Source: Escherichia coli (GTDB lineage: Bacteria; Pseudomonadota; Gammaproteobacteria; Enterobacterales; Enterobacteriaceae). From it: DNA of 64,000 bases. The DNA lies in assembly GCA_005400705.1 (NCBI GenBank), contig GCA_005400705.1_4079.1, one strand, 5' to 3'. The translations under genes and the position numbers were made by a program. The stretch's first letter is position 1, and every line of letters starts with the position of its first letter. The notes under the pieces were generated by a model. It was not told the DNA's origin. It saw only the letters and a program-made list of their open reading frames with translations, and searched no databases. Shown here one piece after another: positions 20,951-49,751 of this stretch.

Positions 20951-21090
20951 TTATATAGACAGTACAAAGGCGTTACTATCCGTGGTAATGCTGGTGGATA
21001 TGTAGTATCATATGGTTTGAATAAGATAAACACTAGTAGTATTATTGTAGCATTACAGTACTATAGTATTTTTATAATGAGGTTAAAATA

Positions 21091-29628: not shown

Positions 29629-29722
29629 ATAAAAGGGATTGGACTATGGCAAAATGCGTAGGGGGGCTAAAGTGCGGGTAACTTAGCGACTTCGATAAAA
29701 GGGTATTACGAATAAAATGTTA

Positions 29723-29750
29723 TTGACTTTTTATATAAATCGTATAAAAT
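29723..29750 (+). promoter_or_regulatory. Candidate promoter at head of family B array
   Basis: TTGACT 29723-29728 then tataaaat; spacer 14-16 nt depending on which -10 hexamer is used. Confidence 0.35.
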
Positions 29751-29780
29751 ATGATTGATAATAATTTTAAGGGAGTCCCT

Positions 29781-29978
29781 GTGCGTATTTTAACTCAAGC
29801 AGAACACCACGAAAGACTTATCAATAACATGGCTATGATAATGTATAAGTCCCATGAACGTGGTATTGCCTATAAGCGTGAATTAGTACTGGAACTATTC
29901 ATTGGAACTAACTTTCAGGAAAGGTATGTCAACGATTGGATTTGGTATTTAATTGAAGATATAACGAGTAAACTATGA
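29781..29978 (+). CDS. Family B small protein
   Basis: Track ORF 29751-29978; start moved to GTG 29781 after SD aagggag because ATG 29751 abuts the -10; core IGTNFQERYV. Confidence 0.5.
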   Translation: MRILTQAEHHERLINNMAMIMYKSHERGIAYKRELVLELFIGTNFQERYVNDWIWYLIEDITSKL

Positions 29979-30169
29979 TAATTTTAACTAAAAAAGAATA
30001 TCAAGAACTGTTACGTAAAAACTACGTAAAGATTTACAATACAGACACACACGTAGAACGAATGGAGTTATACCTTTTGATTACATTGGGAACTAACTAT
30101 CAGGAAAGATGGGTGATTCAATATATGGATACATTGAAAAATAAAATATTGTCCACGAGGAAACAATGA
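29975..30169 (+). CDS. Family B small protein
   Basis: 64 aa; core LGTNYQERWV. Confidence 0.65.
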   Translation: MIILTKKEYQELLRKNYVKIYNTDTHVERMELYLLITLGTNYQERWVIQYMDTLKNKILSTRKQ

Positions 30170-30375
30170 AAATCATAACACACAGACAAGCATTGGGTCG
30201 TATGGTGAAGTATCTTGAATTGATGGTGTCTATACCAAAGAGCTTACCAAAAACTGAAAGAGCGATACATTCAGCAGAGTATCGTCTGTTAGCAGTACTG
30301 AATACTAACTACCAAGATGAATATGTTGACGATTGGATTCTATCATTAATAGAAGATATAAAGAGTAAACTATGA
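30166..30375 (+). CDS. Family B small protein
   Basis: 69 aa; core LNTNYQDEYV. Confidence 0.65.
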   Translation: MKIITHRQALGRMVKYLELMVSIPKSLPKTERAIHSAEYRLLAVLNTNYQDEYVDDWILSLIEDIKSKL

Positions 30376-30584
30376 TTTTTTTAACACCAGAAGAATATAA
30401 GATACGTTTTGTTTCTGTCCAGAATAAAATCTTAATTATATACAATTCAAATGCAGACCTTAACTTATCAAGGGTATTAGAAAAAGATTTACTTATGGGT
30501 GCATTTTTGGATACAGACTTTCAGGAGTATTATGTAGGGGAATACTTAATTGCACTCAAGAATTATATTAAGAGTAAACTATGA
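30372..30584 (+). CDS. Family B small protein
   Basis: 70 aa; core LDTDFQEYYV. Confidence 0.65.
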   Translation: MIFLTPEEYKIRFVSVQNKILIIYNSNADLNLSRVLEKDLLMGAFLDTDFQEYYVGEYLIALKNYIKSKL

Positions 30585-30796
30585 ATATCATTGCAAACTC
30601 AAATCAATATACCGAACGCGTCGCTGCAAGACAACTTGAAATTCTCATAGTATACGAAGAGACTTCTGATTTAAACTTAGCCGAGGTATTGGAAAATGAT
30701 ATACTATTGGGTGCATTCCTCGGCACAGACTATCAGGAGCACTTCTTGAATGAGTATATAATTGCACTCCAGAAATACATTAAGAGCAAACTATGA
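30581..30796 (+). CDS. Family B small protein
   Basis: 71 aa; core LGTDYQEHFL. Confidence 0.65.
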   Translation: MNIIANSNQYTERVAARQLEILIVYEETSDLNLAEVLENDILLGAFLGTDYQEHFLNEYIIALQKYIKSKL

Positions 30797-31029
30797 AACA
30801 TTTAAGTAATTCCGAGAAGAATAAAATTATCGTTGCTGCAATAAACAAATATTTTACACTTCCTCACACAGAAGGTTTATGTGTAAGAGAACACAGGATA
30901 AACACCACCGATATACGCATGATGGCTGTACTGGGGACTAACTTTCAGAAGGAGTATGTTGATGCACACATTACCGCACTGATGAACTTTATAATGGGAA
31001 AGGTAAATGAAACACTTAACACTAGATGA
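30793..31029 (+). CDS. Family B small protein
   Basis: 78 aa; core LGTNFQKEYV. Confidence 0.65.
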   Translation: MKHLSNSEKNKIIVAAINKYFTLPHTEGLCVREHRINTTDIRMMAVLGTNFQKEYVDAHITALMNFIMGKVNETLNTR

Positions 31030-31264
31030 ATATGAAACTATAGTCCGTAAACTAACCCCTATAGCAAGGATAGTCTACGATGACCCCAGCCTTACATGGA
31101 ACCAAATGCGAGCTAAAGTTAATGAGCTATGGTTGCTGTACTTTATGGGAACGCAATATCAAGATAAGTTTTGCACAGAATATGTCGAACAATTAATGAA
31201 TGTTATACAGGATAAACTAGATGATTATTGGCTCGCAAAACATGAAGACTTTATCAGGAGTTGA
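31007..31264 (+). CDS. Family B small protein
   Basis: 85 aa; core MGTQYQDKFC. Confidence 0.6.
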   Translation: MKHLTLDEYETIVRKLTPIARIVYDDPSLTWNQMRAKVNELWLLYFMGTQYQDKFCTEYVEQLMNVIQDKLDDYWLAKHEDFIRS

Positions 31265-31493
31265 GTATCAAACTGCCCTATTCTCTTTAATCCATACCCT
31301 TAGAAAAAACAATGCCTTACATGGTGCACCTGAAGTGGATGTTATCAACGGTGAACTTTATCTGATGAAATTCATTGGAACAAACTATCAAGATCTGTTC
31401 ATTCAACGATACCTATCAGCATTAAGAAACCAAATCCAATATAAAACCATCAAGGCCAAAAAAGAATGGAATAAACAATGCGACACAGACTAA
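31221..31493 (+). CDS. Family B small protein (start uncertain, 31221 or 31242)
   Basis: core IGTNYQDLFI. Confidence 0.55.
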   Translation: MIIGSQNMKTLSGVEYQTALFSLIHTLRKNNALHGAPEVDVINGELYLMKFIGTNYQDLFIQRYLSALRNQIQYKTIKAKKEWNKQCDTD

Positions 31494-31729
31494 ATCACAA
31501 AATGTATTGTAAACTATTGCAGACACTGGCACAGAAACACTATGACACGGTATCTGAAATATTACCCTATGATATCATGCGTTTACTTCACTGTGAGGCC
31601 GAGATGCTTGTACTGATGACAGGCACAGATAAAAAAGCAATTGCCAAATCAATAGATATGTTCATCGAAGCACAATGTCAACACATTAGAACCGAGATAT
31701 GGAGGCGAGAGAATGATAACCCTAAATGA
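31478..31729 (+). CDS. Family B-like small protein (degenerate core)
   Basis: 83 aa; core TGTDKKAIAK. Confidence 0.5.
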   Translation: MRHRLNHKMYCKLLQTLAQKHYDTVSEILPYDIMRLLHCEAEMLVLMTGTDKKAIAKSIDMFIEAQCQHIRTEIWRRENDNPK

Positions 31730-31928
31730 GTATCAGTATCATTGGAGGTTACAAGCTATAAGAAGGAAAGTTGTTAGTATTTCTTTAGACAAGTCTATTG
31801 CACAAGAGGACAAATGTGTTATAATAGCTGAAATGAAGTTGGGTGTTTTCGTAGGGACAAACTATCAAAACATCTACACTGACGTATTGTTAAGTGTCTT
31901 ACGTAACAAGGTGATATCAAAAGAATGA
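31713..31928 (+). CDS. Family B small protein
   Basis: 71 aa; core VGTNYQNIYT. Confidence 0.65.
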   Translation: MITLNEYQYHWRLQAIRRKVVSISLDKSIAQEDKCVIIAEMKLGVFVGTNYQNIYTDVLLSVLRNKVISKE

Positions 31929-32143
31929 GAAAATTACAAGGCTTTGAATACATCAGGCTCCTGAAAACATGTGGCAGCAGAAGGAGAATGATATCAAGCG
32001 ATAAGAGCATCTCTATTGACCTGAAGCACGCAATGAAAGCTGAACTCTATGTAGGAGCACTATTGGGGACAAACTATCAACAAATGTATGTAGACCTATG
32101 GATTGATGCATTAGTCAAGGAGGTCCAAAGTAAATGCAAATGA
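31925..32143 (+). CDS. Family B small protein
   Basis: 72 aa; core LGTNYQQMYV. Confidence 0.65.
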   Translation: MRKLQGFEYIRLLKTCGSRRRMISSDKSISIDLKHAMKAELYVGALLGTNYQQMYVDLWIDALVKEVQSKCK

Positions 32144-32352
32144 TTAATTTAAGTAAAGATGAATTTTATGTTCTACTGGCGAAAACTTATTCATTACGCA
32201 AGGCCGTTTATGATAGTCACATTATTGAACCAACAAAGAAGTTGATTTTAGTATCTGAGATAAAGATGCTTTCAGTCTTAGGAACAAACTACCAAGAGAA
32301 TGCTGTACTGTTGTTAATTGATGCCCTCAAGAGAGAGATACAAAGTAAATGA
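32134..32352 (+). CDS. Family B small protein
   Basis: 72 aa; core LGTNYQENAV. Confidence 0.65.
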   Translation: MQMINLSKDEFYVLLAKTYSLRKAVYDSHIIEPTKKLILVSEIKMLSVLGTNYQENAVLLLIDALKREIQSK

Positions 32353-32588
32353 TTCATTTATCTTACCATGATTATCAAAAACGTTTAAATGCATCAAGGG
32401 ATATAAGAATTCAAATCTTCAATAACAAAAAATTGAAACCTGACACCAGAAGAATCAAAATAATCGAAGCAGAGTTATGCAACTTCCTGGGGACGAACTA
32501 TCAGGCAGGTAAGGTAAAAAACTATCTTAGAGAACTCATGAATTGTATCGAAAATAAATGCGATGCTTTGGAGGATAAAAATGATTAA
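32349..32588 (+). CDS. Family B small protein
   Basis: 79 aa; core LGTNYQAGKV. Confidence 0.65.
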   Translation: MIHLSYHDYQKRLNASRDIRIQIFNNKKLKPDTRRIKIIEAELCNFLGTNYQAGKVKNYLRELMNCIENKCDALEDKND

Positions 32589-32838
32589 TTTAAATTCTGA
32601 TGAATATCATGAACGCATGGCTAAAATCTCAACTAAACGAAATGAAATCTATCACAACCCAGAAATTCAACACAGTAAGAAAATGATTATGATGCGTGAG
32701 TTAAAGTTGGGTGTATTCTTAGGAACAAACTATCAAGAACCAGAGGTCCAACGCGTATTAAATGAATTACTAATGGAAATCAGAGGTAAGCTTTACTTTC
32801 ATCAAATGACCCAACCACTGAGGTGTACTGTGAAATGA
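32581..32838 (+). CDS. Family B small protein
   Basis: Track ORF trimmed to ATG 32581 after SD ggagga; core LGTNYQEPEV. Confidence 0.65.
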   Translation: MINLNSDEYHERMAKISTKRNEIYHNPEIQHSKKMIMMRELKLGVFLGTNYQEPEVQRVLNELLMEIRGKLYFHQMTQPLRCTVK

Positions 32839-33050
32839 TCAACATCACATTACAAGAAAGATTCATCCGAATCAACTATGCAATTTCCAAATTAGATGCT
32901 ACAATAGGATTTCAAAGTCTACCGTTCAAAACCAGAATGATATTAGAGTGCGAAGCCAGGTTAGGTGTACTGTTAGGGACGCAACACCAACAACGATATG
33001 TGGAAATCTGGATTGATCTTTTAACCCAAAATGCACATGAGAGAATGTAA
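32835..33050 (+). CDS. Family B small protein
   Basis: Track start 32823 is GTG; ATG 32835 overlaps previous stop; core LGTQHQQRYV. Confidence 0.6.
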   Translation: MINITLQERFIRINYAISKLDATIGFQSLPFKTRMILECEARLGVLLGTQHQQRYVEIWIDLLTQNAHERM

Positions 33051-33281
33051 ATGCAAAATGAAATGATATACTTAACACATGATGAATTTCAAGAGAAGAT
33101 GTTAAAAGCCAATAACATTACTCTTAAGTTCGTTCCAAATCAATCAATATATGAAATGTCTGCGAATGTATTGTTTGAGAAGCTACCATACGTTCTTGGA
33201 ACTGATAAACAAGAATTTATGGTTCAAAATATGATTGAGCATCTTGCAATGAGTATTATGGAAAAAGTAAATGCAAAATGA
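33051..33281 (+). CDS. Family B small protein
   Basis: 76 aa; core LGTDKQEFMV. Confidence 0.6.
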   Translation: MQNEMIYLTHDEFQEKMLKANNITLKFVPNQSIYEMSANVLFEKLPYVLGTDKQEFMVQNMIEHLAMSIMEKVNAK

Positions 33282-33531
33282 AATGAAATACTTAACATAT
33301 AATGAATACGTCGAGAGATTAGTTAGTGCCAAGAGATATGCCAATCAACTTCCTAATGATCCAAACCAAACCCCAGAGGAAAAGAATGCGGAAGCTCTAT
33401 TCCAAGCACTACCATACCTTCTTGGAACTGATAGGCAGGAGTATCACGTTGAACGTATAATTAAATCTCTTAAAATCACTATTAAGGAAAAAGTAAATGC
33501 AAAAGGAAATGATATACTTAACAGACGATGA
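33271..33531 (+). CDS. Family B small protein
   Basis: 86 aa; core LGTDRQEYHV. Confidence 0.6.
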   Translation: MQNEMKYLTYNEYVERLVSAKRYANQLPNDPNQTPEEKNAEALFQALPYLLGTDRQEYHVERIIKSLKITIKEKVNAKGNDILNRR

Positions 33532-33754
33532 GTTAAAAGAACGATTAATTAAATCCAGAAAACTTACAAATCAACTTCCAAACGACACAAACAAGTCACC
33601 TGCCGAAAGGAGTGCAGAAGTTTTATACATTCAACTCATGTACTTTCTTGGAACTGACAGACAAGAGTATTACATTGAAAGTATGCTTCGATATCTTAAA
33701 TTCTCTATAAAGGAAAAGATACATGCTCAAGAATTTAAAAATCCTAACAGCTAA
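33497..33754 (+). CDS. Family B small protein
   Basis: 85 aa; core LGTDRQEYYI. Confidence 0.6.
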   Translation: MQKEMIYLTDDELKERLIKSRKLTNQLPNDTNKSPAERSAEVLYIQLMYFLGTDRQEYYIESMLRYLKFSIKEKIHAQEFKNPNS

Positions 33755-33980
33755 TGAATATCATAAGATTGTAATGGAAACTAATAGTGCTTACGCTAAA
33801 AAATCAAACCCAAAGTATATACTGGAACACACATTTGAAGAACGTCAATTAGCTCTAGTTGAAGCAAAACTTCTTGCACTATTAGGAACAAACTATCAGG
33901 AAGAATACAATAGAAAACTAATATACCTTTTAACTAAACACATCAGGAAAAGAAAAAAGCATGAAACACTTGACAGATGA
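33723..33980 (+). CDS. Family B small protein
   Basis: 85 aa; core LGTNYQEEYN. Confidence 0.6.
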   Translation: MLKNLKILTANEYHKIVMETNSAYAKKSNPKYILEHTFEERQLALVEAKLLALLGTNYQEEYNRKLIYLLTKHIRKRKKHETLDR

Positions 33981-34191
33981 TGAACATGGGCTTATAGTAA
34001 TGGATGTAATCAACATCGAATTCAAAAAGTTGATACGCTACCGTTGTTATGAAGATAAGCAACTCGTTCTAGCAGAACAGAAGTTGTTTCGACTCTTAAA
34101 CACAAACTACCAAGCACAATACGAAGAATCGTATATGTACCTTTTGGCGAGGAAAGCAAAAAGAGATTATGAAAATTTTAAGCCACGATAA
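33961..34191 (+). CDS. Family B small protein
   Basis: 76 aa; core LNTNYQAQYE. Confidence 0.6.
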   Translation: MKHLTDDEHGLIVMDVINIEFKKLIRYRCYEDKQLVLAEQKLFRLLNTNYQAQYEESYMYLLARKAKRDYENFKPR

Positions 34192-34384
34192 ACAAACAGA
34201 ATTGTTAATCTTTAATACAAGTAAATTCTTAAACATAACATTGTCTGATATAGATGAGGATGAAAAAGAGTTACTTAGAGCAGATTTAAGAGTTCTTTTA
34301 TATATTGGAACTAACTTCCAAGAGCAATTCGTTGAGGACTACATCGATGAACTTAAAGAATCTGTACTGAGAACATGCAAATGA
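34169..34384 (+). CDS. Family B small protein
   Basis: 71 aa; core IGTNFQEQFV. Confidence 0.65.
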   Translation: MKILSHDKQTELLIFNTSKFLNITLSDIDEDEKELLRADLRVLLYIGTNFQEQFVEDYIDELKESVLRTCK

Positions 34385-34626
34385 AAATCCTTTCACCAAG
34401 TGAATACCACGAACTATTAAGTAGTTTAATTCTAAAATTGTATATAGCAAAGACCACAGATTTACCAGATGAAGAAAAAAATATTCTAATGAGTGAAATC
34501 TATGTTAATTCTACCCTAGGGACTAACTATCAAGAATGTAATATTAATGATTACATCAAAGAACTAAAAAGGTTTATCCAATGCAAATGCGAATCATTAC
34601 CGGAGAAGAATACCGAACAATCATAA
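34375..34626 (+). CDS. Family B small protein
   Basis: 83 aa; core LGTNYQECNI. Confidence 0.65.
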   Translation: MQMKILSPSEYHELLSSLILKLYIAKTTDLPDEEKNILMSEIYVNSTLGTNYQECNINDYIKELKRFIQCKCESLPEKNTEQS

Positions 34627-34823
34627 ATGGACTGTTTTTGAAGTTATTTGCCATTAACACATCAAAACTACCAGATACGGATAAAATTATTAAGTTAAAT
34701 GAAATCTACGTTCAAGCAACTCTAGGAACTAACTATCAAGAAGCCAATGTTTATAATTACATTAATACACTTAAAAGGGTAATACAATTAAAATGCACAG
34801 ACAGCACATACACAAACCCCTAG
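34581..34823 (+). CDS. Family B small protein
   Basis: 80 aa; core LGTNYQEANV. Confidence 0.65.
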   Translation: MQMRIITGEEYRTIINGLFLKLFAINTSKLPDTDKIIKLNEIYVQATLGTNYQEANVYNYINTLKRVIQLKCTDSTYTNP

Positions 34824-35023
34824 GAACAGCAGAATACATTGAACTAATGGCAGCAAACTTCTCATCCTTTCAGAAACTGATGCAAGAATCAAATAATGAT
34901 TTAGAATATCATATCAAAAGTTCAGATTTAAGATTGTTACTCACTCTAGGAACAGACAGTCAGTACAAATTCGTACAGGAGCATATTAGAGCACTTTTAA
35001 ATGGCATCAGGAATAAACTATGA
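34793..35023 (+). CDS. Family B small protein
   Basis: 76 aa; core LGTDSQYKFV. Confidence 0.6.
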   Translation: MHRQHIHKPLGTAEYIELMAANFSSFQKLMQESNNDLEYHIKSSDLRLLLTLGTDSQYKFVQEHIRALLNGIRNKL

Positions 35024-35235
35024 AGGTAATATCAAACCAAGAGTACTTGGCACTATTCAGAAAAAATAGTCAAGAATTTCTGAATCTTGATACAAGAACT
35101 GATATAAGTGAACTTGAAAAAAATCTTTTGCGTTCAGAGATGATAGTACTGACACTCTTAGGAACACAGCACCAAGAGAGAACTGTTAATTCACACATAG
35201 GGATTCTTATACAGATAGTACAGGAAAAGATATGA
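35020..35235 (+). CDS. Family B small protein
   Basis: 71 aa; core LGTQHQERTV. Confidence 0.65.
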   Translation: MKVISNQEYLALFRKNSQEFLNLDTRTDISELEKNLLRSEMIVLTLLGTQHQERTVNSHIGILIQIVQEKI

Positions 35236-35453
35236 GAATCATAACACAACAAGATATTCTTAAGTTCACAAGGGTTCATGCATCTGAATTTGATGCTATA
35301 TTATCAAAAAGTTACAACAACCCTTATACAGAAGATGTACACTACAGTGAATTATGGGTGTATATACTTTTAGGTACAGATCATCAAGAGCAAGCAGTAC
35401 AGAAGTATTTGTTAGCGTTAAGTACTGCTACTGCTAATGGAGTATGTGTTTAA
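35232..35453 (+). CDS. Family B small protein
   Basis: 73 aa; core LGTDHQEQAV. Confidence 0.65.
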   Translation: MRIITQQDILKFTRVHASEFDAILSKSYNNPYTEDVHYSELWVYILLGTDHQEQAVQKYLLALSTATANGVCV

Positions 35454-35697
35454 TATGAAAGTACTGACAGAATTAGAAATGTATCATAGATTTAATAAGT
35501 ACTATCATTTACTTAAACCTATACAGAGGATTAAGTGTCCCTTTGTAGTGAAACAGGTATTAATTTATGAGCATAAGTTATTTGTATCATTAGGTACGAA
35601 TGAACAAGAGTATTATTTGAAGTTGTACTTAATTACTTTAATTGAATTGATTAATTACAAAACTCAGAAAGCGAAGAAATCTAAAAATGAAAACTAA
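35437..35697 (+). CDS. Family B small protein
   Basis: 86 aa; core LGTNEQEYYL. Confidence 0.6.
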   Translation: MEYVFNMKVLTELEMYHRFNKYYHLLKPIQRIKCPFVVKQVLIYEHKLFVSLGTNEQEYYLKLYLITLIELINYKTQKAKKSKNEN

Positions 35698-36028
35698 AAT
35701 TCAACTCAGGGTATACATATCGTATGAAAATATATACGTTAAAAGTAGTCTATGTAAAGATGTAATGGACTACAAAGGTAAACCATTCACAGTTACTTAC
35801 AGTTTAACAGGAGGTTTATATATCTCTTTTGCTAATTACGAAAATAATATGTACGAACACATTGACATTGAAGATTTAAGTACTTTATCACCAGAGGAAT
35901 ACTTCCAGGAATCATTAGTATGGGATTTAGAGTTCCCTATGCCATTAGTACATAAGATGATAGTACTAATGAAAGAATCTAAACAGGAGCCTAATAGTGC
36001 TTATGAAGAACACATTATTGAGTATTAA
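35687..36028 (+). CDS. Family C protein (embedded in family B array)
   Basis: 113 aa; core EEYFQESLVWD. Confidence 0.65.
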   Translation: MKTKIQLRVYISYENIYVKSSLCKDVMDYKGKPFTVTYSLTGGLYISFANYENNMYEHIDIEDLSTLSPEEYFQESLVWDLEFPMPLVHKMIVLMKESKQEPNSAYEEHIIEY

Positions 36029-36040
36029 GAGTACTGATAT

Positions 36041-36256
36041 ATGAAAAGATTATCATACAAAGATTACAGTAAACTTATCAGTACTTTACAACCAGAAATT
36101 AGAAGAATTAATTATCTTCCTATATCTAACGAAGAACGTGTAGTACTGAAAAATGAGTTAATCTTAAAACGCACAGTAGGTACTAACTATCAAGATAATA
36201 GTGTTCGCGATTTAATTAGAGGGTTAATGATCACAATAAAGGCCAAGTGCTATTGA
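36041..36256 (+). CDS. Family B small protein
   Basis: 71 aa; core VGTNYQDNSV. Confidence 0.65.
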   Translation: MKRLSYKDYSKLISTLQPEIRRINYLPISNEERVVLKNELILKRTVGTNYQDNSVRDLIRGLMITIKAKCY

Positions 36257-36262
36257 CAGTAC

Positions 36263-36291
36263 TTGACGGAGCTTTTCATTACTGATATAGT
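36263..36291 (+). promoter_or_regulatory. Internal sigma70-like promoter
   Basis: TTGACG 36263-36268, 17 nt, TATAGT 36286-36291. Confidence 0.4.
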
Positions 36292-36320
36292 GCATCAACG
36301 TTAATCATAGGGTACAGATT

Positions 36321-36566
36321 ATGTTAAAATTTTTAAATTTCCTTATCGTCTTGTGTATTGTTCTTGGAATTGCACCGTTTGTATTAGCGTATCTGGATTC
36401 AGATGAAATGCAGAAGATGAATTGCACAAAGACAGGACAGAGTAGAGAAGAGACGGTTATGATGCCTGTAACGGTTATTGTGAATAACATACCAATTACG
36501 AACATGATTCCTACCCTAACGACAACGTACCAGTACTCTTGTGCTGACGGAGAGAGGTGGAGATGA
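36321..36566 (+). CDS. Small membrane protein
   Basis: 81 aa; hydrophobic N-terminus MLKFLNFLIVLCIVLGIAPFVLAYL. Confidence 0.55.
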   Translation: MLKFLNFLIVLCIVLGIAPFVLAYLDSDEMQKMNCTKTGQSREETVMMPVTVIVNNIPITNMIPTLTTTYQYSCADGERWR

Positions 36567-36874
36567 AATTTAATATAGCAAAAACATCGAGTATATGTAT
36601 TTTTGGTTATTCCTATGAATTGGGTGATATTGACATTCTATTGTACAAAACGAATGGTGTTATGCATTTCAAGTACCAGGATGAAGAGGCAGACAATTAT
36701 CTTTTACCTAATTTAGTACAAATGCAGGAAGAGGAATTATTCCAGTACAGCTTAATATACGACATTGATATTTGCACGATGCCAGTATTAATTAGTATTC
36801 AAAAAGTGATGCTCGATATGTATGATAAGCTAATACAAGGTATGTCAGGGAGGATCATTGAAATCGATATATAA
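36557..36874 (+). CDS. Family C protein
   Basis: 105 aa; core EELFQYSLIYD. Confidence 0.65.
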   Translation: MEMKFNIAKTSSICIFGYSYELGDIDILLYKTNGVMHFKYQDEEADNYLLPNLVQMQEEELFQYSLIYDIDICTMPVLISIQKVMLDMYDKLIQGMSGRIIEIDI

Positions 36875-37070
36875 GAATTTACCTAATGAATATTTGTTGA
36901 AGTACAAAGAGTTTATTAAAGATGTATATGTAGATCCTTTTAATATCAAATTTGCAGAGTTCGAAGTATCATTTTATCTAGGGACAATAGTACAGGACCA
37001 ATACGTTGATAATCTAATAAGGTGTTTGAAAAAGGAGATACAATGCAGACCCAAATGTACAAAAAAATAA
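36858..37070 (+). CDS. Family B small protein
   Basis: 70 aa; core LGTIVQDQYV. Confidence 0.6.
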   Translation: MKSIYKNLPNEYLLKYKEFIKDVYVDPFNIKFAEFEVSFYLGTIVQDQYVDNLIRCLKKEIQCRPKCTKK

Positions 37071-37306
37071 ACTGTTATTTGTATGCATCAAAGTACAGGG
37101 ATTTTTGTTTACGAGGGGGAGAGGAAGATTTTGCTCTGAGATTATCGGAATTTAATATGTTATTTTATCTTGGTACATCAGTACAAGAAGAAATGGTACA
37201 GAAATTTATCAATCACCTTGTACAAAAAATTAATATGCAAATTTTGATGCTTGAGTTACAGAATGAGATAAACAAATATGAACCCAACAATAGTACAGGA
37301 TCTTAA
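37043..37306 (+). CDS. Family B small protein
   Basis: Track ORF trimmed to ATG 37043 after SD aaaggag; core LGTSVQEEMV. Confidence 0.6.
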   Translation: MQTQMYKKINCYLYASKYRDFCLRGGEEDFALRLSEFNMLFYLGTSVQEEMVQKFINHLVQKINMQILMLELQNEINKYEPNNSTGS

Positions 37307-48853: not shown

Positions 48854-49386
48854 TGAAAGTTAACATCAATGACTTTGATGCATTACAAGATTTATCAAAA
48901 AAGATTCGTATCATCGTACCAGTACTAAAAAAATGCAGTACTGGTTTAATTGATCCTAGTACTGTTGTTAATGAGAAGTACAATTTTCATCGTGTATTAC
49001 AGGGTACAGGTGCATTTCAGAAGTGTGATGTACGTGAGAAACACGTAATTGATACATCATTGTTTTCTATTGGTGCACCTGTGTCGAATAATTCTATTTT
49101 CTTGGATAACGCAGGAAATATTCAACAATTAACATTTAAGAAAAGGAAAAAGAACAATAACATTGGTGTGTACGCGATGAAGTGGGGGCAACCTGATTTG
49201 AAGCGTGAAATTCACATCCCTAAGTACAATTACAATGCATTTGACGAACAGTGTTTTCAACTATCGTGTACTGACCCTGACTATGCAATCATTCAGTTCT
49301 ATATGGAATTGCAGATAGCATTTAATAGTAATTTGTATATTAACTTATTGGCGATGAACATCGATGAAGTATTCAAAAACATTTAA
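48850..49386 (+). CDS. Family C-like protein
   Basis: 178 aa; core DEQCFQLSCTD. Confidence 0.55.
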   Translation: MMKVNINDFDALQDLSKKIRIIVPVLKKCSTGLIDPSTVVNEKYNFHRVLQGTGAFQKCDVREKHVIDTSLFSIGAPVSNNSIFLDNAGNIQQLTFKKRKKNNNIGVYAMKWGQPDLKREIHIPKYNYNAFDEQCFQLSCTDPDYAIIQFYMELQIAFNSNLYINLLAMNIDEVFKNI

Positions 49387-49582
49387 TCGAATTGAATACA
49401 TGAGAACTGTGAGTGCAGTGTGGGATATATGGTTCACTACTAAACCAAAAATGGATTACCATGACTTTAAGCTATTGTTCTTCATTGGCTCTAACAAACA
49501 GGATGTTGCAATGAAGGGTTATATTCAGCACTTACAGGAACTAATACAGAAGAGGGTTAATGAAAATAATAGACCAAGATGA
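49364..49582 (+). CDS. Family B small protein (embedded in family C array)
   Basis: 72 aa; core IGSNKQDVAM. Confidence 0.55.
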   Translation: MKYSKTFNRIEYMRTVSAVWDIWFTTKPKMDYHDFKLLFFIGSNKQDVAMKGYIQHLQELIQKRVNENNRPR

Positions 49583-49751
49583 TATTGCTAAACTATTCAA
49601 TATATATTCTACTAGAATGATGCAAACAGACTCATATAGTACTGAATTCAAAGAGTTGAAAGTACTGATGTACTTGGGAACCCAATATCAGGAACAAGTT
49701 ATTTTGGAATATATTAATTCGTTGAAGAAGGATATCCGTTATGTACGATGA
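49560..49751 (+). CDS. Family B small protein (embedded in family C array)
   Basis: 63 aa; core LGTQYQEQVI. Confidence 0.6.
   Translation: MKIIDQDDIAKLFNIYSTRMMQTDSYSTEFKELKVLMYLGTQYQEQVILEYINSLKKDIRYVR

Follow-up and report, generated by a model that had tools for sequence, protein, structure and literature searches.

A tandem array of thirty diverged mini-protein genes in an Asteriusvirus jumbo coliphage: a possible host-directed repertoire

Thirty Paralogous Genes in Tandem

The window (the whole 64,000-nt stretch of DNA analysed) derives from an Asteriusvirus, a jumbo coliphage of the PBECO4/121Q/phAPEC6 type. It shares 85–92% DNA identity with 36 jumbo-phage records of Escherichia and Salmonella, where the genes are all annotated as hypothetical. 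Between 29,781 and 37,306, we identified 30 genes of one family, termed family B, all on the + strand, encoding proteins of 63–94 aa with the signature h-G-T-x-x-Q. The ORF listing has 30 + strand ORFs of 64–94 aa from 29,751 to 37,306, and the motif scan places [LIVMT]-[GND]-T-x-x-[QK] at residue 38–54 in 30 out of 30; a profile built from these 30 recovers every one of them (E 2e-19 to 9e-28), the best non-family ORF within the window reaching only E 0.06. ORF listing, motif scan and profile thus bear out the dense tandem array of about 30 copies of one mini-protein family that the initial annotation had described. At the DNA level, the degenerate motif GGNACNRAYTWYCAR occurs 15 times, always on the + strand and within the array, and in none of 100 dinucleotide shuffles.

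The array is real, but the span first given for it, 29,723–37,306, also takes in three ORFs that are not family members (35,687–36,028, 36,321–36,566 and 36,557–36,874), and its left coordinate was misplaced: 29,723 falls on the −35 hexamer of a predicted promoter. Gene 1 starts with GTG at 29,781 and not with ATG at 29,751, because the relatives carry an ATG at the former position and a conserved ribosome-binding site stands just before it. The two extra copies reported within the family C region (49,364–49,751) do belong to the family: B32 (49,560–49,751) matches the profile with E 5e-18, and B31 (49,364–49,582; motif IGSNKQD) matches a profile built without it with E 2e-7.

Taking each start codon from the family consensus, we count 13 junctions at which start and stop form an exact ATGA overlap; most of the remaining ones overlap by 8–40 nt, in agreement with the overlaps between start codons and previous stops noted initially. 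All 30 reading frames are without breaks and their orthologs are under purifying selection (see below), the opposite of the stop codons and frameshifts in most copies that had been named as evidence against a genuine array. The features of the locus are as follows; B1 to B30 are each identified by ORF and profile, with further evidence in brackets.

29,682–29,683, no strand: point matching the right end of the direct terminal repeat (DTR) of relatives (homology; the window has a single copy)
29,723–29,750, +: predicted sigma-70-type promoter before the array, TTGACT-N16-TAAAAT (consensus match, conservation)
29,768–29,780, +: predicted ribosome-binding site AAGGGAGTCCCT before gene 1 (GGAGTCCC conserved in all aligned relatives)
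29,781–29,978, +: B1, 65 aa, GTG start, longest ORF from 29,751, IGTNFQE (relatives' start)
29,975–30,169, +: B2, 64 aa, LGTNYQE (ATGA overlap)
30,166–30,375, +: B3, 69 aa, LNTNYQD (ATGA overlap)
30,372–30,584, +: B4, 70 aa, LDTDFQE (ATGA overlap)
30,581–30,796, +: B5, 71 aa, LGTDYQE, 52% identity to B4
30,793–31,029, +: B6, 78 aa, LGTNFQK
31,007–31,264, +: B7, 85 aa, MGTQYQD
31,242–31,493, +: B8, 83 aa, longest ORF from 31,221, IGTNYQD
31,478–31,729, +: B9, 83 aa, variant motif TGTDKK, 2-residue insertion (profile E 2e-19)
31,713–31,928, +: B10, 71 aa, VGTNYQN
31,925–32,143, +: B11, 72 aa, LGTNYQQ
32,140–32,352, +: B12, 70 aa, longest ORF from 32,134, LGTNYQE
32,349–32,588, +: B13, 79 aa, LGTNYQA
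32,581–32,838, +: B14, 85 aa, longest ORF from 32,563, LGTNYQE
32,835–33,050, +: B15, 71 aa, longest ORF from 32,823, LGTQHQQ
33,063–33,281, +: B16, 72 aa, longest ORF from 33,051, LGTDKQE
33,283–33,531, +: B17, 82 aa, longest ORF from 33,271, LGTDRQE
33,509–33,754, +: B18, 81 aa, longest ORF from 33,497, LGTDRQE, JNE01 ortholog still 70% identical
33,723–33,980, +: B19, 85 aa, LGTNYQE
33,961–34,191, +: B20, 76 aa, LNTNYQA
34,169–34,384, +: B21, 71 aa, IGTNFQE
34,381–34,626, +: B22, 81 aa, longest ORF from 34,375, LGTNYQE (AlphaFold model, pLDDT 94.4)
34,587–34,823, +: B23, 78 aa, longest ORF from 34,581, LGTNYQE
34,793–35,023, +: B24, 76 aa, LGTDSQY, JNE01/Turkey5 ortholog 73–78% identical
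35,020–35,235, +: B25, 71 aa, LGTQHQE
35,232–35,453, +: B26, 73 aa, LGTDHQE
35,455–35,697, +: B27, 80 aa, longest ORF from 35,437, LGTNEQE
35,687–36,028, +: non-member ORF, 113 aa, EEYFQ motif of the downstream family C type (ORF, PHROG match phrog_13866)
36,041–36,256, +: B28, 71 aa, VGTNYQD
36,263–36,291, +: candidate internal promoter TTGACG-N17-TATAGT with upstream TG (consensus match only)
36,321–36,566, +: non-member ORF, 81 aa, hydrophobic N-terminus (ORF, PHROG match phrog_8826)
36,557–36,874, +: non-member ORF, 105 aa, EEELFQ motif (ORF, PHROG match phrog_13866)
36,858–37,070, +: B29, 70 aa, TTG start, LGTIVQD
37,022–37,306, +: B30, at most 94 aa (start uncertain), LGTSVQE
49,364–49,582, +: B31, 72 aa, divergent, IGSNKQD, inside the family C region (profile E 2e-7, AlphaFold model)
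49,560–49,751, +: B32, 63 aa, LGTQYQE, inside the family C region (profile E 5e-18)

Promoter and Terminal Repeat

Window position 29,701 aligns to position 21,011 in fEgEco12 and 21,544 in vB_Ec-M-J, for which DTR lengths of 20,993 bp and 21,525 bp have been published (PMC13070987). From these lengths and the alignment, the repeat end would lie at about 29,682 in the window, so that the array appears to start some 100 bp past the point matching the end of the ~21-kb DTR of relatives.

The predicted promoter, TTGACT-N16-TAAAAT, is conserved in fEgEco12, phAPEC6, G17, L008 and the divergent JNE01/Turkey5, and the ribosome-binding site and the gene 1 start codon are likewise maintained across divergent relatives. 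In A4 and PBECO4, a different site, TTGACA-N17-TATGAT, immediately precedes the first family B gene. The array promoter is the last, degenerate copy in a row of 24 sigma-70 promoter cassettes of stereotyped build in the DTR block; at 63% identity to the cassette reference, it matches less well than the copies within the repeat itself. The candidate internal promoter occupies the sole sizeable gap within the array. On the + strand of the scanned region, we found two weak terminator-like sites, no more than expected by chance. Promoter consensus and position suggest that the array is expressed early.

A Predicted Orphan Four-Helix Fold

The AlphaFold model of B22 (pLDDT 94.4) consists of four helices, and that of the divergent B31 (pLDDT 88.5) has the same topology; on these models, family B comprises soluble proteins of 63–94 aa with one orphan four-helix fold. 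In the model, the signature G-T is bridged to an M-x-x-L-T strand at the N-terminus, and we read G-T-(N/D)-x-Q-(E/D) as a tight turn and N-cap that open the long fourth helix, 22 residues in length and amphipathic. The “hydrophobic/basic tail” of the initial annotation is indeed present, but is better described as this fourth helix. Conservation is found in the helical hydrophobic pattern and at E10, E41, G49, T50, Q53, E54 and K71; the hydrophobic core is maintained, and the end of helix 1, helix 2, the loop after it and the C-terminal tail vary freely. The pI ranges from 4.4 to 9.9 across the members, about half of which are basic (pI 8–9.9), a spread that speaks against a uniform nucleic-acid binder.

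The family corresponds to PHROG 4148 (phrog_4148, unknown function; full-length matches, E 1e-17 to 4e-26), an entry that comes without information on function, fold or genomic organisation. Pfam, NCBIfam, PADLOC and PDB sequences yielded no match, in keeping with the initial statement that the fold could not be assigned to a known one; the structural search returned no neighbour outside the family itself, and neither PADLOC nor Pfam nor structural families offered a similarity that gives a functional handle. Searched exhaustively with the family profile, 1.84 billion representative proteins yielded only 108 family B proteins, and tblastn with one member hit 36 phage records, each of a jumbo phage of Escherichia or Salmonella. 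Many of the homologs in databases bear an E. coli label and lie on contigs of ~350 kb, and distant metagenomic relatives keep the signature and the hydrophobic core. In the literature searched, we found no description of the tandem array.

Duplication History and Divergence

Pooled over reciprocal-best orthologs, dN/dS is 0.32–0.40 in four genome pairs (~2,000 codons per pair), as opposed to 0.17 for repeat-flank genes, with a 2–7-fold higher dN. The family B members are real coding genes; a dN/dS of 0.3–0.4 is equally compatible with relaxed constraint and with part of the surface being under diversifying selection. Identity between paralogs is 53% at most, and the adjacent gene is the best paralog for 13 of the 30 genes versus 2.0 expected (p about 2e-4): the array expanded long ago through local tandem duplication.

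The comparison of copy number in related phages, suggested at the outset, gave 20–31 copies per genome at the same locus. In each of the seven relatives examined, including JNE01/Turkey5 at 35–46% identity, reciprocal-best hits follow the same gene order, and ortholog identities are mosaic (43–99%). Against JNE01, repeat-region proteins are 83–100% identical, and from the first family B gene onwards identity is 27–46%; judging from these sequences, the array evolves faster than the adjoining repeat-region genes.

Possible Roles of the Array

We propose that the region is one tightly packed operon of ~30 anciently duplicated genes and that its genes may be transcribed early and supply a repertoire of accessory binders directed at the host, for takeover or counter-defence, an explanation to which, as a whole, we would give an even chance. 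The turn and helix of the L-G-T-x-x-Q signature recall the helix-turn-helix (HTH) of the 434 repressor, which includes VGTTQQS, and family B could instead consist of phage-internal regulators, small DNA- or RNA-binders that tune the phage's own expression or DNA organisation; the basic pI of about half of the members and the early position among many small early genes would suit such a role, and the zinc-ribbon expansion of phage G has been so interpreted by Iyer et al. (PMC7824862). We consider this unlikely: with the cutoff relaxed to E 1, the Pfam HTH families still match none of the 32 members, the hydrophobic spacing after the Gly is two positions off the canonical HTH and helix 4 has 22 residues, the pI falls as low as 4.4, and it would be unusual for thirty diverged regulators to share one operon and to vary in number between 20 and 31. 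About as unlikely is a function that is directed not at host defences but at inter-phage conflict or a persistent (carrier-state) lifestyle of Asteriusvirus, e.g., superinfection exclusion or lysis damping. Among assemblies of E. coli isolates, Asteriusvirus genomes are over-represented, a pattern interpreted as persistent infection by the study that reported it (bioRxiv 10.1101/2024.12.31.630880), many homologs carry E. coli labels on ~350 kb contigs, and copy-number change and fast evolution suit any arms race; however, there is no specific link between this family and persistence, the host-directed reading accounts for the same observations, and searches of Pfam, PHROG and PADLOC found no exclusion-protein homology.

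The genomic context brings in the larger family C proteins (EExxFQ), which fill the next ~27 kb and of which family B proteins might be partners (adaptors, immunity or antidote subunits). Two B genes lie inside the C region (49,364–49,751) and two C-type ORFs inside the array (35,687–36,028; 36,557–36,874), a distant metagenome contig (L012) interleaves B copies with homologs of the window's C-region ORFs, and some relatives have, at the array position of B28, a 269-aa protein in which a further ~200 aa are joined to a B domain. Such a partnership is nevertheless improbable, given that the main run of 27 B genes has no interleaved partner, that B and C counts are not one-to-one, that profile–profile comparison detects no relation between the two families and that the C proteins show no detected toxin or enzyme domain. 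We are just as doubtful that the array is largely dispensable filler, that is, weakly constrained paralogs born by duplication and drifting with little present function: an omega twice that of neighbouring repeat genes, a copy number of 20–31 and the absence of a known function or homolog are what one would expect of it, yet omega stays well below 1 over ~2,000 codons per genome pair, the ORFs are all intact, gene order is kept where orthologs are down to 35–46% identity, distant metagenomic relatives retain the signature and hydrophobic core, and promoter and ribosome-binding site are conserved. The inner-body proteins of phiKZ are paralogs, and family B might likewise be packaged as virion or inner-body components. 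An inner body is visible by cryo-EM in phAPEC6 (PMC7247149), but the main text on its virion mass spectrometry (62 virion proteins) names no gp46x–gp48x protein, and with an early host-type promoter, a locus distant from the structural genes and proteins of only ~8 kDa, this role is very improbable.

Under the host-directed reading, the position after the DTR and the conserved sigma-70 promoter imply that host RNA polymerase would transcribe the array early, soon after DNA entry, and translation would pass from gene to gene via termination–reinitiation at the ATGA overlaps. We infer that one scaffold would serve many binders, each paralog being specialised for its own host target, be it a host-takeover target or a component of an anti-phage defence or toxin. 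The Vaccinia Bcl-2-like family and the immunity arrays of polymorphic toxins, where many paralogs of one small helical scaffold bind different partners, provide a functional analogy.

In T5, the pre-early genes of the terminal repeat are small early genes with host-type promoters and host-remodelling products. The host-takeover module in the terminal redundancy of the Bacillus phage SPO1 is a 26-gene cluster (PMC6873191); both are, like the array, small early clusters at a terminally repeated end with strong host-type promoters, but their genes are mostly unrelated to each other and lie inside the repeat, whereas the array is a single paralogous family just outside it, and the window's repeat block with its 24 promoter cassettes is the closer SPO1 analogue. 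The ~35-copy zinc-ribbon family of the Bacillus jumbo phage G is likewise a lineage-specific expansion of a very small protein to ~30–35 copies, with a guessed function (PMC7824862); it differs in host, phage lineage and fold, family B being all-helical without a metal-binding motif.

The multigene families (MGF) 100/110/300/360/505 of African swine fever virus and the terminal host-range families of poxviruses are also tandem diverged paralogs near genome termini. In the former, changes in member number and sequence make up most of the variation between isolates, and MGF 360/505 determine host range and virulence (PMC4664411). Like these families, the array follows a terminal repeat, varies in copy number (20–31) and shows the greatest divergence within the region compared. 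They differ in belonging to eukaryotic viruses and in having larger, unrelated proteins and individually transcribed genes, whereas the array is a bacterial-type operon with overlapping starts and stops, and its host-directed role is proposed from sequence. If that role holds, the array would be to this phage what terminal multigene families are to large eukaryotic DNA viruses.

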